In this document: positions 9,876 to 14,769 of the stretch, piece after piece | Position numbering within the stretch: the stretch's first letter is position 1 | Layout: each line of letters opens with the position of its first letter | From: Candidatus Daviesbacteria bacterium | Lineage (GTDB): Bacteria; Patescibacteriota; Microgenomatia; Daviesbacterales; UBA10151 | Assembly (NCBI GenBank): GCA_030648645.1 | Contig: JAUSHL010000008.1 | Location: 1-45,707, forward strand | Length of the DNA stretch: 45,707 nt | Direction: 5' to 3' | Notes under the pieces: model-generated | Database searches by the model: none | The model's input: the letters and a program-made list of their open reading frames with translations, nothing else | Told to the model about the DNA's origin: nothing | Translations under genes and position numbers: made by a program

Positions 9876-10652
9876 ATGAATGTAGCCATTATCTCTCCAA
9901 CAGCTTATTTGAATGAATTATCATGCTATAGAAAGAATTCCTATCATATGGTACTTGCGCAAAGAGTATTAGAAGATGAACACTATGCAAATTTTTATAA
10001 TCTTTATAAAGGATTTACTATTTTAGATAATGGGGCATGTGAGTTAAAAAGATCAATCCATTTTGAAGCTCTACTAAAAGTTATAGAACTGATTCATCCT
10101 AATGTAGCTGTCTTACCTGATATATTAGGGGACAGTGAAGCAACATTAAAATTAAGTAATTTATTTTTAAATAAAATTAGTCAAAAAGACTGCGAAAATT
10201 TAATTTTTATGGGGGTTTGCCAAGGTCAAACTAAAAAAGAATGGCTAACAAGCTTTAATTTTTTTGCAAAGCACGACAAAGTCAAAATGATTGGAATTAG
10301 CAACACAGAAGCAATGTTTAAAGCAGATAAGAATACTTTCAGCAGAGTACAAACTTTAAAATATTTATTAGATCATAATCTTTTACCTCAAAATAAAAAA
10401 ATACATTTACTTGGTCTTCCTGATTCAGGTCACTTAGAGTTGTTCAAGATGAAACAATATAATTGTGTCGAAGGAGTTGATACAAGTGCACCTGTAGTTC
10501 ATGGAACCGCGGGGATATCATTTAAAGAAAATTTATCATATAAAAAAATTCGACAATATTTAGATTCAGCAACGATCTTAAATAAAAGACAAATTGCGTT
10601 AATAAAACAAAATATTGATGTATTATTTGTATCTTCGGGATATCTATTATGA
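9876..10652 (+). CDS. minimal TGT-superfamily (DpdA-like) transglycosylase candidate, 258 aa
   Basis: ILDNGACE resembles the TDSGGFQ loop. VLPDILGD is also present. HLLGLPDSGHLELF...VEGVDTSAPVVHG resembles LMGVGxPxD...GxDMFDCVxPTRxxRxG. No CxCxxC..H zinc site. Confidence 0.45.
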   Translation: MNVAIISPTAYLNELSCYRKNSYHMVLAQRVLEDEHYANFYNLYKGFTILDNGACELKRSIHFEALLKVIELIHPNVAVLPDILGDSEATLKLSNLFLNKISQKDCENLIFMGVCQGQTKKEWLTSFNFFAKHDKVKMIGISNTEAMFKADKNTFSRVQTLKYLLDHNLLPQNKKIHLLGLPDSGHLELFKMKQYNCVEGVDTSAPVVHGTAGISFKENLSYKKIRQYLDSATILNKRQIALIKQNIDVLFVSSGYLL

Positions 10653-12226
10653 GTAATTTAGAAAGAAAGAGTACTAGAATTTCTTTTGAAGGAGAGAGAG
10701 GAACAGGAAAATCTACATTAGCCCAAATATTCTTAATAAATCAAGAGATTTTGGGTCGAAAAGCTATTATAAATAGACAAGTTGATACTGGTAAATCTAC
10801 GAATCCGTCACATTTAAAGACGTTAGAACTTCATACAGAATGGGAGAAGTTAATTACTGATGGTGAAGAATCCGATCGGGTTGAGTCAATCGCAATGACG
10901 AAATTTCACTATGCTCTTAAATGGTTTATTCAAGAAGAGAACATCTTCACGACTATACGAGAGAGTTGTAATACATTTATTTGTGATAGAGATATCGATT
11001 CTATTGTTTTGTACGCGGCAGTTGAGATGATTATTTCGAATTCTAGAAAGTATCAAACAAATGAATCCAGAATCAATTTAATCAAATCACTTTGGGAAAC
11101 AACAAAATCAGTAAAAGAATTACCAGATATCACTTTCTGTTTTACAAGTAAAGACCATGAATTAACTCTTAAGAGATCATATCTATCAAAAGAATTAACT
11201 CAAGATGAATTTGATTTAAATCCAATCCAAAGAGCATCCCAAGAATTAGCTTCAATTTTGCTCAGTGATGTGGTTAAAACAAGACCGATAGAAGAAGGAA
11301 AGAAAATTTATATGATCAATATAGATGGTAAAAGATTTGATGAGGTAGCTCGTGTAGTTGATATTCTATATTCAAAACCATATTCTCTAATTAAGAAAGA
11401 AATAGATTACCCAATTTTAAGTATAAGAAGCGCAGATTCAAAAAAGCTGATTCCTAAATCTTTGGCGGATTTAATTACTGCACTAGTGGAATCTACAAGT
11501 GGATCTGCTTTTCCATCAAAAGAAGATGTATCATTGGGATTTTCAAATTGTGTATTTTCTAATGCATCATTAGTGTATTGGGCACAAGAATTAAAACTGA
11601 GCAATTTGATTTTTACATCTGTAGAAGAAGACGGAATAACAAATACAAATCCAGTACATTGGGTTACTTTTGAAGTCTTAGATGATGAAGTTGGCAGAGT
11701 GATTGATATTACACCGTTTAATCCTCCGATAATTGGATCAAACGTACGTTTTAAGCAAAATAATGATGTTATACAAATTGCTGAACCATTTGACGGTACT
11801 CGATTAAATTGGAGGCAGTTGAGAATTGATAATCCTCGAATTGCAATAGAACTGATGGAATTAGCAAACTTATCTCAGTTAATACAGCCAGATTATGTAA
11901 TTAATCATGCATATAAAATGTATATGTCTGGCGATAGAGAAGGACATATCGTATTCGCAGGTGTAAGGTTGGTTAGAATGCTTGAGAAATATAACAAAAT
12001 GGATGAAATTTATAAATATATTAAAGAAATGGTTGCTAGTTTTCCAGATAACTTAGTTGTTATTAGAGAAATTACTAGACTTAATAAAGAGTATGATCTA
12101 GAATTAGATGAATTTACAGGAACAATTAAGAGAGCAAGAAATCGAATTGTAAATGCTATAAATATCATGGATAATTTAAATGCTAGGAAATTTAAAGATT
12201 ACTATAAATGGGTTATCGAGAACTAA
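10649..12226 (+). CDS. fusion protein: thymidylate/nucleotide-kinase-like N-domain plus transglutaminase-like Cys-His-Asp fold and helical C-terminus
   Basis: ISFEGERGTGKST P-loop and ICDRDIDSIVLYAA (DRxxxSxxxY) match Tmk. GFSNCVFSNASLVYWAQEL ... VHWVTFEV ... RVIDITP matches the transglutaminase core pattern C..H..D. ATGA overlap with the upstream ORF. Confidence 0.5.
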   Translation: MSNLERKSTRISFEGERGTGKSTLAQIFLINQEILGRKAIINRQVDTGKSTNPSHLKTLELHTEWEKLITDGEESDRVESIAMTKFHYALKWFIQEENIFTTIRESCNTFICDRDIDSIVLYAAVEMIISNSRKYQTNESRINLIKSLWETTKSVKELPDITFCFTSKDHELTLKRSYLSKELTQDEFDLNPIQRASQELASILLSDVVKTRPIEEGKKIYMINIDGKRFDEVARVVDILYSKPYSLIKKEIDYPILSIRSADSKKLIPKSLADLITALVESTSGSAFPSKEDVSLGFSNCVFSNASLVYWAQELKLSNLIFTSVEEDGITNTNPVHWVTFEVLDDEVGRVIDITPFNPPIIGSNVRFKQNNDVIQIAEPFDGTRLNWRQLRIDNPRIAIELMELANLSQLIQPDYVINHAYKMYMSGDREGHIVFAGVRLVRMLEKYNKMDEIYKYIKEMVASFPDNLVVIREITRLNKEYDLELDEFTGTIKRARNRIVNAINIMDNLNARKFKDYYKWVIEN

Positions 12227-12236
12227 TTAATTAACT

Positions 12237-12737
12237 ATGAAAATTGCTACACTTTGTTATTTAATTGATTCAAAAAAGAAAAGAGTTTTATTGGGTAAGA
12301 AAAAATATGGTGGAGCAAAAGGGAAATTAAATGGTTTTGGAGGCAAAGTTGAAACAAAAGATATAACAATCCTTGAGTGTATAAAAAGAGAGTTTTTAGA
12401 AGAAACAGGTATTTCTTTAAATAATCCCAAATTATCAAATGTAGTATTTTTTAATTGGGAAGGAGAAAAAGAGAATCTTGTTGTTTATGTGTATAAATGT
12501 ACTAATTGGAGTGGTGATCCTAAAGAATCAGAAGAAATGACTGCAGATTGGTATAAATTAGATTCTATCCCAATTGGAAAAATGTGGGCATCAGACTCTA
12601 TCTGGTTTCCTTTAGCTATAAAATATTCAGAGTTAATAATAAATTTATACTTTCAACCTAATAAGGATCAACCAAAAGAAGTATCTATAAAATTCAATGA
12701 AAAATTATATGAAAATATCCACGAAAAAACTAACTAA
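12237..12737 (+). CDS. MTH1/NUDT1-like Nudix (d)NTP pyrophosphohydrolase
   Basis: VLLGKKKYGGAKGKLNGFGGKVE..REFLEETGI Nudix box and MWASDSIWFPLAIK. These are close to human MTH1 segments (GRWNGFGGKV, MWPDDSYWFPLLL) as I remember them. Confidence 0.7.
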   Translation: MKIATLCYLIDSKKKRVLLGKKKYGGAKGKLNGFGGKVETKDITILECIKREFLEETGISLNNPKLSNVVFFNWEGEKENLVVYVYKCTNWSGDPKESEEMTADWYKLDSIPIGKMWASDSIWFPLAIKYSELIINLYFQPNKDQPKEVSIKFNEKLYENIHEKTN

Positions 12738-13629
12738 AATTCCATTATATTTAGCAAGGGTATTAGATTCTGATAATAATCAAATTAAATTAGAGCAGCT
12801 CCGCGTAAAAGAATATTCAAAGAAAATTACTAGCCTAAGAGGAACAAGAATAGCAATTATACCATGGAGCGCAGGTCTAGATTCTACTGCATCATTACTT
12901 ATGGCGTTAGAATCAGGTAATCGAGTGATTACTGTAAACTTCAATTATGGACAGCAATACTGGAATAAAGAAAGAGAAACAATAAATAAAATCCGCCAAA
13001 TGATATTTAAAAGATATCCACAGGCTTTAAGCCTTTGGCTACAGCATAAAGAAGTTGATATCTCTTGGCTTGATAAAGCACTGAAAAAAGAGTTTCCAGG
13101 AGAATGGCAGCATATTTTCCCAATGAGAAATTTCACCATATTAATGGAGGTAATGAAAGTTATTCCTATAAATAATTACAAATATAGAGAGATCTGGTTT
13201 AGCTGTGTCCAGGGAGAAATTCCATTTTCAGGTGGTGACAAGAGTATAGTATTTTTAACAGAAGTTGCGAGAATATTTAGTTTAAACAAATTCCTTCTTG
13301 TTCTTCCATTAATTGGGCTCAACAAGACTGATATTGTTAAGTGGGCGCTAAATAAATCTTATAGATTTGAGATCATTAAAGAAACAATATCCTGTTTCAG
13401 CGGGAAAGGAGAAAAACATTGCGGTAGCTGTCTAGCTTGTTTTAATAGATTGGTGGGATATTATTCCGCTGCTGTTGTAAAGAATTGTGGATTTATCCCT
13501 AACTATAATCTACTAAAACCATTTATTGATAAATATAAAAGTGCGTTCAAAAAAGAGAATTATTATTCTCCTTCTCGAAAAAATGATATCTTTAATCTAA
13601 TTTATTTTTTAGAAAATAAAAATTTATGA
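12697..13629 (+). CDS. QueC-like PP-loop ATPase (7-cyano-7-deazaguanine synthase family) with ~50-aa N-extension
   Basis: SAGLDS PP-loop, NFNYGQQ, FPMRN, PLIGLNKTDIV, and zinc site C-x8-C-x2-C-x2-C (CFSGKGEKHCGSCLAC). The start may be the ATG at 12697 or at 12709; both overlap the Nudix ORF. Confidence 0.7.
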   Translation: MKNYMKISTKKLTKIPLYLARVLDSDNNQIKLEQLRVKEYSKKITSLRGTRIAIIPWSAGLDSTASLLMALESGNRVITVNFNYGQQYWNKERETINKIRQMIFKRYPQALSLWLQHKEVDISWLDKALKKEFPGEWQHIFPMRNFTILMEVMKVIPINNYKYREIWFSCVQGEIPFSGGDKSIVFLTEVARIFSLNKFLLVLPLIGLNKTDIVKWALNKSYRFEIIKETISCFSGKGEKHCGSCLACFNRLVGYYSAAVVKNCGFIPNYNLLKPFIDKYKSAFKKENYYSPSRKNDIFNLIYFLENKNL

Positions 13630-14492
13630 TAAGCTTTATTATCCCAAGCTATAAGAGATCACAAGTAATTACAGGAGTTTTAATTGCTTTAAAAAATCAG
13701 ACAATAATTAAAAAAAATCCTTGTGAGATATTAGTAAGTATTGATAATATCGATCCGGAAATTAAGAATTATACTTCATATCTTGAACAAATCCAGAAAA
13801 TATTTACAGATTTTCAATTACAATTAAAGATAATTTTAGTAATAAACAATACACAAGGATTAGTTCTAGCAAAGAACAAGGCGATAAATCTGGCAAAATA
13901 CCCTTATATTATGATGATGGATGATGATTTATATATGGAGGACGATTATGTCGAAAGTTTATTAAAGGATTTAAAGATAAAAGAAGTTGGTGCAGTTTCA
14001 GGCTTTATCGTTTCATATAGACCAGCAATTTCTCATACCCAAAAGTCCGATATTATTAATAATATTTCTCAAATAGATAATCTCCAAACATTACATATTA
14101 AAAAAACAATAGATGGTTGGCGATCGGTATTCGGAAAAAAAGAGCAAGTGATGAACTGGATAAAAATTCGCGATTCTATCCCTCGACAAAAAAGATATAA
14201 TATGGATTATTTAATAAACTCATATCTTTTTAAGAAAGAAGCATTTATAAAGGTAAAAGGATATAATATTAAACTAAATAGTAAGACTTCAGCACATGAA
14301 GAGGTTGATTTTACATTTAGGATTAAAAGATTAGGATATAATCTTATTTTTAATCCACATCATATGATGTGGCATCTTACGGTTGGTAAGGGTGGTATTT
14401 ATAAAGGATTAGATAGAAAATCTAGTAAAAGGGTCTTAGAGGAAGAATATAACGAACAACTTCCCAAATTAATAAGGTCTATATCAAGATAA
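13626..14492 (+). CDS. family 2 (GT-A) glycosyltransferase
   Basis: ISFIIPSYKRSQVI N-terminus and MMDDDLYME DxD motif. ATGA overlap with the QueC-like ORF. Confidence 0.7.
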   Translation: MISFIIPSYKRSQVITGVLIALKNQTIIKKNPCEILVSIDNIDPEIKNYTSYLEQIQKIFTDFQLQLKIILVINNTQGLVLAKNKAINLAKYPYIMMMDDDLYMEDDYVESLLKDLKIKEVGAVSGFIVSYRPAISHTQKSDIINNISQIDNLQTLHIKKTIDGWRSVFGKKEQVMNWIKIRDSIPRQKRYNMDYLINSYLFKKEAFIKVKGYNIKLNSKTSAHEEVDFTFRIKRLGYNLIFNPHHMMWHLTVGKGGIYKGLDRKSSKRVLEEEYNEQLPKLIRSISR

Positions 14493-14514: not shown

Positions 14515-14769
14515 ATGTGTAGTCCTAAAAAAGTGTGTTGCTTTGTCTGTTATAAAAACTTCCCAAAATCTGTTAAATCTCAGAGATGTAAAACTTGTGG
14601 AGATTTTAAATGTCCGCTTTGCAAAAGTTGCCTTTGCGATTTAACAGTTGGGGAGCAAAGAGTTGCACTAGCAATGATGCGAACTTATAAGCCAATCCTT
14701 GGAAATGATTATGACTTTTCAGTCCATGGAGCGATTGAAAAACGTATTAAAGCTAGTTTGAAAAAATGA
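14515..14769 (+). CDS. Cys-rich zinc-ribbon protein (84 aa)
   Basis: CCFVC..x13..CKTCGDFKCPLCKSCLC gives ten Cys residues in CxxC-type pairs. Last ORF of the operon. Confidence 0.55.
   Translation: MCSPKKVCCFVCYKNFPKSVKSQRCKTCGDFKCPLCKSCLCDLTVGEQRVALAMMRTYKPILGNDYDFSVHGAIEKRIKASLKK

Follow-up and report, generated by a model that had tools for sequence, protein, structure and literature searches.

A zinc-free, TGT-fold protein, very probably of the DpdA3 subfamily, encoded in a five-gene Patescibacteria cassette

The five-gene cassette and its host genome

The window, that is, the whole stretch of DNA that was analysed, comprises 45,707 nucleotides of a Candidatus Daviesbacteria genome. It carries a cassette of five genes in the same orientation, which is adjoined by a small Cys-rich reading frame. 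These features, together with the canonical TGT gene of the same genome, are as follows.

9876..10652, + strand: ORF1, 258 aa, predicted zinc-free TGT-fold transglycosylase, very probably of the DpdA3 subfamily
10649..12226, + strand: ORF2, 525-aa fusion of a Tmk-like fold, a Cys-His-Asp domain and a helical repeat
12237..12737, + strand: ORF3, 166-aa Nudix (MutT-like) hydrolase
12697..13629, + strand: ORF4, 310-aa divergent QueC-family PP-loop ATPase
13626..14492, + strand: ORF5, 288-aa family-2 glycosyltransferase (GT2), its start overlapping the ORF4 stop (ATGA)
14515..14769, + strand: Cys-rich ORF, 84 aa, zinc-ribbon-like, adjoining the cassette
contig C7:9608-10639 (locus L003:1501-2559), − strand: canonical TGT

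The ORF1 reading frame was open throughout; it was preceded by an AGAGGA-type ribosome-binding site 7 nt 5' of its ATG, and its stop codon overlapped the start of ORF2 (ATGA). A promoter and terminator scan gave a site count that was not above that of shuffled sequences. When sequencing runs were searched, the sole holder of the sequence was one groundwater metagenome, which may be its source; no RNA sequencing runs holding the sequence were listed.

In ORF2, a thymidylate-kinase fold was predicted for residues 8-243 (Z 20.0 to S. aureus TMK), which contain a CDRD motif and the P-loop GERGTGKS, and a helical repeat for residues ~394-525. The domain between them has an invariant Cys301, His337 and Asp353; these lie on two strands and at the N-terminus of a helix. 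It was assigned to no family when searched alone against Pfam. Its resemblance to NAT and transglutaminase domains (Atlas: NAT-like TM 0.60, transglutaminase-like features 0.88-0.89) is offered as a lead only. ORF4 retains the SAGLDS (PP-loop), FPMRN and C-x8-CxxCxxC zinc motifs and lacks the YPDC substrate motif, which is essential in E. coli QueC. The first 41 nt of the gene overlap the end of the Nudix gene (window 12697-12737). An N-terminal extension of ~50 aa is conserved in both orthologues of ORF4 (the alignments begin at residues 1 and 5), so this overlap is real and not a miscalled start.

The neighbourhoods of two among about a dozen closest ORF1 homologues were compared, and both showed the identical five-gene order, at 28-54% identity, in other genomes of ~1.1 Mb (loci L001 and L002). 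One genome is that of Patescibacteria BroJett019 and the other is a MAG labelled Gammaproteobacteria; one ORF1 orthologue lies on a 1.05-Mb Patescibacteria contig. At both loci a divergently oriented gene of the Vut_1/YhhQ family, known as that of the preQ0/preQ1/queuine importer, was located directly upstream of the transglycosylase gene. Despite its Gammaproteobacteria label, the genome of L001 (CAYUGO010000011.1) is of ~1.1 Mb, and the locus has 36% GC and a cassette of the Patescibacteria type; a serine recombinase gene is found two genes upstream (52-1647). The genome could have been assigned to the wrong taxon, or the cassette could be carried by a mobile element. The cassette is rare, as ORF1 was found in none of 400 other genomes sampled from the phylum. 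Its GC content (29.8% over 9876-14492, compared to 33.9% for the whole window) is compatible with acquisition, although the difference is small.

The host is of the Patescibacteria type, with a groundwater genome of 0.96 Mb that is 95% complete, and the flanks of ORF1 are cellular (a two-component system, an RluA-type pseudouridine synthase, a Na+/H+ exchanger, YebC and others). As the preliminary description of this DNA had stated for canonical bacterial TGT, the enzyme of this genome is longer than ORF1 and has a zinc site: it has 352 aa, scores 347.7 bits against PF01702 and carries a CxCxxC...H motif after the Asp of its FDC motif. Canonical TGT was present in 40 of 41 sampled genomes of the phylum. 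Because the host encodes it, ORF1 is not a replacement of the tRNA enzyme.

FolE, QueD, QueA, QueF and YhhQ were not found in the 95%-complete host genome, and neither FolE nor QueD was detected in the two other genomes with the cassette. The cassette QueC was the sole clear QueC in each of the three. Since FolE and QueD are absent from all three genomes, the base must be salvaged. For the QueC-like ORF4, CDG, the canonical substrate, has no in-genome source. Given that QueA, QueF, QueD, FolE and YhhQ were not found, the tRNA pathway of the host may likewise depend on a salvaged base of the queuine type, or may stop at the inserted base.

Fold, active site and missing zinc site of ORF1

An AlphaFold2 model of ORF1, for which 29 homologues served as the alignment, had a mean pLDDT of 96 and a pTM of 0.92 and comprised eight beta-alpha units. 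The top matches of this model in a Foldseek search of the PDB were all bacterial TGT or archaeosine TGT (ArcTGT). VIA-align superimposed 235 of the 258 residues on residues 40-363 of Z. mobilis TGT (Z 18.2, rmsd 3.3 A), in agreement with the earlier suggestion that ORF1 is a TGT-like protein with a TIM-barrel fold. In an exhaustive VIA search of 48,161 representative chains the best three matches were DpdA 7UI4 (Z 16.8, 18% identity), ArcTGT (16.7) and bacterial TGT (16.5); lower down came generic TIM barrels (Z ≤ 15), QTRT2 (14.9) and Cap10 (9NTN_B, 14.3). As generic TIM barrels reached Z 15, the fold alone discriminates weakly, and sequence evidence matters.

Searches of PDB sequences with the single ORF1 sequence or a small profile returned nothing relevant, and PF01702 did not match ORF1 at E values up to 1. 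The sole Pfam family that scored ORF1 was DUF6610 (PF20314), at 13.7 bits against a cut-off of 27. Detection of the match to TGT by hhalign needed profiles on both sides, a 29-row profile against one TGT sequence being insufficient. With a profile of 169 relatives of 200-300 aa, which constitute the ORF1 family alignment, set against 29 Patescibacteria TGTs, the match had a probability of 95% (E 3e-8) over ORF1 residues 61-220.

This profile alignment paired D82 with the first Asp of LDDC, Q116 with the Gln of VQG, H177-x-L179-G180 with YxLGVG and D202 with the Asp of FDC. The motif residues paired with TGT are 87-99% conserved across the ORF1 family (D82, 99%; Q116, 87%; D202, 98%). When the TGT-specific beta-insertion (residues 85-109 of the TGT of the same genome) was excised, the alignment became continuous over ORF1 residues 20-238 and its score rose slightly; it then paired D51, which is 99% conserved, with the Asp of TDSGG, and N21-S-Y-H with NTFH. 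The strand order in the ORF1 model agreed with this pairing of D51. In the numbering of Z. mobilis TGT we take the TDSGG Asp to be D102, the first Asp of LDDC D156, the VQG Gln Q203 and the FDC Asp the nucleophile D280.

In untouched global hhalign alignments the partner of D51 had instead been a strand of the TGT-specific insertion. That pairing was rejected because the insertion strand lies outside the barrel, the model having exactly eight strands in the TGT order, and because excision gave a longer, better-scoring continuous alignment. We flag the assignment of D51, made by sequence comparison, as the least direct among the three Asp. The proposed check of the catalytic Asp residues, carried out by comparing profiles, thus aligned D51, D82 and D202 with the three active-site Asp of TGT. 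Judged from these alignments and the predicted model, ORF1 is probably catalytically active.

The zinc site of TGT is missing from ORF1. Its GVDTSAP motif corresponds to residues 200-206, with 56 residues C-terminal to D202, and its five Cys (17, 55, 106, 115 and 197) are scattered and form no cluster. None of the Cys columns is conserved, the top Cys frequency among the 169 relatives being 0.12. The near-invariant positions are D51, N52, E56, P81, D82, T90, Q116, G117, G140, R157, H177, L179, G180, D202 and N246. A CxCxxC motif was present neither in ORF1 nor in any of its 169 relatives, which confirmed the earlier account of a minimal 258-aa protein without a zinc Cys cluster. For this reason zinc loss is, as read from the family alignment, a trait of the DpdA3-like radiation. 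The same account had further expected a reduced, zinc-free architecture of DNA-targeting DpdA-like proteins in general; this did not hold, as the bacterial DpdA 7UI4 keeps a conserved CXCX2CX22H site (PMC10164549).

The preliminary description had also proposed that a separate 84-aa Cys-rich protein encoded at 14515-14769 supplies the lost zinc module in trans. That reading frame does exist; it follows the GT2 gene on the same strand at a distance of 22 nt and encodes 10 Cys in CxxC-type pairs, an arrangement that favours the proposal. However, no Shine-Dalgarno-like sequence was found 5' of its ATG, and the frame was absent from both orthologous cassettes. Weak look-alikes (best E 7e-7) were found in 3/400 genomes, in which ORF1 was not found, and no Cys-rich partner was found near the DpdA3 genes of two annotated phage clusters (immuto and phiST). 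A co-fold prediction of ORF1 with the Cys-rich protein scored 0.00 and gave no verdict. Since the whole family lacks the zinc site, including the DpdA3 enzymes of phages whose DNA is fully modified, a module in trans is uncalled for. The Cys-rich ORF is probably unrelated to the cassette, and we give its supplying zinc to ORF1 next to no probability.

Phage relatives and their gene context

The founder of the DpdA3 subfamily, named in 2023, is CGPG_00065 of Cellulophaga phage phiST (PMC10516641). The ORF1 family profile matched this protein over its full length (hhalign, 99.4%, E 5e-21, 244 columns). The tblastn matches were confined to Flavobacterium phage immuto_2-6A (28% identity, E 3e-12), where the protein is annotated as a DNA guanine transglycosylase, the DpdA of that phage, Campylobacter phage CP220 and relatives, to Cellulophaga phage phiST (again CGPG_00065) and relatives, and to a few others. 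ORF1 also matched PHROGs 19058 (E 3e-10) and 20335 (E 5e-9), of which CGPG_00065 and the immuto DpdA are the best members. The closest viral structure was M4SLA5 of phiST (TM 0.86). Because the PHROG, tblastn, hhalign and viral-structure matches all reach DpdA3 phage proteins, ORF1 is very probably a member of the DpdA3 subfamily, and its earlier description as a DpdA-type TGT offshoot can be made specific to DpdA3.

The radiation to which ORF1 belongs is large, with 2,437 cluster representatives at E ≤ 1e-3 and 504 at 1e-10. In a tree, ORF1 was placed in a separate 22-row clade (SH-aLRT 97), with phiST and immuto on other branches.

Phages of the DpdA3 group replace all of their G by a 7-deazaguanine, which is dADG in CP220, dDG in phiST and formyl-dPreQ1 in immuto (PMC10516641). 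Attempts to reconstitute a DpdA3 enzyme were unsuccessful (PMC10516641), and the case for DNA as the substrate therefore comes from mass spectrometry and genetics of the phages and not from enzymology.

Gene context was determined for 87 viral or metagenome loci that carry an ORF1 relative. FolE was found near the relative in 74 of them, QueE in 62, QueC in 59 and QueD in 56; a family-A DNA polymerase was found nearby in 79/87 loci. At one such locus the gene order was primase, QueC, QueD, QueE, FolE, two small genes, the DpdA3-like gene and the polymerase. This context gives strong support to a role of the ORF1 relatives in 7-deazaguanine DNA modification.

Some further genes at these loci were recorded. 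The polymerase at L052:8710-11088 has an N-terminal domain of the uracil-DNA-glycosylase superfamily (PF03167, E 2e-28). Within a few genes of DpdA3, immuto_2-6A encodes a thymidylate kinase (L094 7478-8002) and phiST a MazG-like pyrophosphatase (L093 4618-5205). These two are reminiscent of the Tmk-like and Nudix proteins of the cassette, although no sequence similarity to them was detected. A tblastn search of the 87 loci with the Tmk-like, Nudix and GT2 proteins of the window gave zero matches; the accessory genes are therefore not common to the phage clusters at such sensitivity.

Candidate mechanisms and known systems

The fold, the motif alignment, the family membership, the conservation of the cassette and the absence of de novo genes were computed here. 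By analogy with TGT and DpdA, the best-supported mechanism is one in which ORF1 would swap guanine for a salvaged 7-deazaguanine, most likely in DNA; we estimate its probability at about 0.6. ORF1 would work as a bare (beta/alpha)8 TGT barrel that lacks the N-terminal lid, the beta-insertion after strand 3 and the zinc subdomain. In this scheme the nucleophile that attacks C1' of a polymer guanine nucleotide would be D202, and acid/base catalysis would fall to D51; the 7-deazaguanine base that enters in exchange for guanine would be bound by D82, Q116 and the HxLG loop. The base would be salvaged, in two of the three loci through the neighbouring YhhQ-type importer, and the other four enzymes would presumably elaborate it or manage the nucleotide pool. 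The DNA target, the identity of the base and the roles of the accessory enzymes are what we infer from this analogy and from the gene context.

Among the points that count against this reading, the cassette does not have the FolE, QueD, QueE and polymerase neighbours that define the phage context, and its nucleotide kinase and Nudix hydrolase would equally suit a route through the nucleotide pool. On such a route the exchange catalysed by ORF1 would take place on free (deoxy)guanine nucleotides or nucleosides and not in a polymer, which we consider unlikely. The same low probability attaches to its details, in which the Tmk-like domain would phosphorylate the modified monophosphate and the Nudix enzyme remove competing or unwanted triphosphates, and to its product, which would be incorporated by a polymerase or, after glycosylation, would be a small-molecule 7-deazapurine nucleoside. 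The ATGA overlap that joins ORF1 to a domain with the thymidylate-kinase fold would fit this route, as would the MutT-like Nudix gene of the cassette, the kinase or MazG-like gene near DpdA3 in the annotated phages, the polymerase beside the gene in most viral loci, and the replacement of 100% of G in DpdA3 phages, which is typical of pre-replicative routes. However, look-alikes of the Tmk-like, Nudix or MazG proteins occurred in at most 2 of the 87 viral loci at tblastn sensitivity, and a polymer substrate needs no phosphoribosyl- or deoxyribosyl-transferase logic. Moreover, the TGT-superfamily enzymes characterised so far all act, to our knowledge, on polymers or protein adducts. It is decidedly unlikely that ORF1 inserts 7-deazaguanine into RNA, at a tRNA or rRNA position other than that of canonical TGT. 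The superfamily is ancestrally tRNA-directed, no restriction partner adjoins the cassette, and ORF1 is basic (pI 8.8) like the TGTs of Patescibacteria (median pI 8.5); against this, the genome already encodes a full-length, zinc-bearing TGT, the zinc subdomain is missing from ORF1, its closest relatives for which a phenotype is known have a link to DNA modification, and relatives adjoin DNA polymerases.

The presence of a QueC-like enzyme beside a TGT-like protein also brings to mind Cap9 and Cap10, of which such a pairing is the hallmark (PMC11996544). On this reading the cassette would serve defence or signalling in the manner of type IV CBASS: the QueC-like enzyme would ligate 7-carboxy-7-deazaguanine to a protein amine and ORF1 would bind or process the adduct. 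The match of ORF4 to the PADLOC QueC model (E 4e-13), the similarity of ORF1 to Cap10 (Z 14.3 to 9NTN_B) and the sporadic occurrence of the cassette (0/400 genomes sampled) are consistent with this. It is nevertheless very unlikely, both as a chemical scheme and as a function for the cassette: the cassette contains neither a CD-NTase nor an effector, no PADLOC model matched ORF1, the Z score to Cap10 was below those of generic aldolase barrels, and ORF1 keeps three catalytic Asp and groups with phage DpdA3 and not with Cap10.

Beyond the exchange of guanine for a salvaged 7-deazaguanine in DNA, we tentatively suggest that the whole cassette, encoded by the cell and fed by salvage, is a pathway for placing a hypermodified 7-deazaguanine not described before in the chromosomal DNA of Patescibacteria, a possibility that we rate well below an even chance. 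The GT2 enzyme might add a sugar to this base; the divergent QueC and the Cys-His-Asp domain might, in addition or instead, give it an amide or acyl linkage. In a stronger variant, DpdA3 enzymes would act on the nucleotide pool and not on finished DNA.

Taken by itself, ORF1 adds a member to a family that was named in 2023. The DpdA3 group has so far been described in phages only, whereas ORF1 is encoded by a cell, and no description of a cell-encoded, salvage-fed DpdA3 cassette was found in the papers searched. If the proposal is true, this would be the first DpdA3-type system that belongs to a cell and not to a phage. Among the DNA 7-deazaguanine transglycosylases, least is understood about DpdA3, which is tied to complete replacement of G in phages; its cellular host here appears unable to make the base, yet keeps a normal tRNA TGT. 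The five-gene unit, in which ORF1 is coupled to a kinase/thiol-enzyme fusion, a Nudix hydrolase, an altered QueC and a glycosyltransferase, is compact and assayable and predicts a modified base that is not yet catalogued. The zinc subdomain, which is conserved from bacterial TGT to bacterial DpdA, appears dispensable in a radiation of more than 2,400 sequence clusters. The proposal suggests that epibiont Patescibacteria may mark their own DNA with a base scavenged from their hosts.

When compared to known systems, the cassette shares with Cap10 and Cap9 of type IV CBASS the pairing of a TGT-like protein with a QueC-like enzyme; it differs in having no CD-NTase or other nucleotidyltransferase, no PADLOC match for ORF1 and a Z score of only 14.3. 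ORF1 shares with Z. mobilis TGT the (beta/alpha)8 barrel, the order of the active-site motifs and the three Asp, but differs from bacterial TGT in lacking the lid, the beta-insertion after the TDSGG strand, the zinc subdomain and a PF01702 score. Bacterial DpdA (S. Montevideo, 7UI4) has a TGT-fold barrel without an N-terminal beta-lid, acts on DNA, and was the best exhaustive structural match of ORF1, with the highest identity. It has 413 residues, four insertions and the CXCX2CX22H site, whereas ORF1 has 258 aa and lacks a Cys cluster. In the Dpd restriction-modification system this enzyme inserts preQ0 into DNA; its zinc site is said to be conserved in the family, it needs the ParB-like ATPase DpdB, and it sits with DpdC and DpdD-K (PMC10164549). 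None of DpdB, DpdC and DpdD-K was found among the cassette genes or the annotated flanks.

DUF6610 is the DpdA4 family, which occurs in archaeal viruses, HVTV-1 among them (PMC10516641). DpdA4 is likewise a short TGT-like barrel linked to 7-deazaguanine DNA, and one ORF1 relative with 48% identity carries a precomputed DUF6610 domain; however, the phage and profile matches of ORF1 go to DpdA3, and its PF20314 score is below the cut-off. The DpdA3 phage enzymes are also zinc-free bare barrels of ~260 aa, and their LDNG, PD, QG, HxLG and D[TS] motifs are conserved in ORF1. ORF1 differs from them in its cellular gene and its separate clade, and in having no FolE, QueD, QueE or DNA polymerase neighbours; it is instead coupled to the Tmk-like/Cys-His-Asp fusion, the Nudix hydrolase, the divergent QueC and the GT2 enzyme, and it appears to be salvage-fed.
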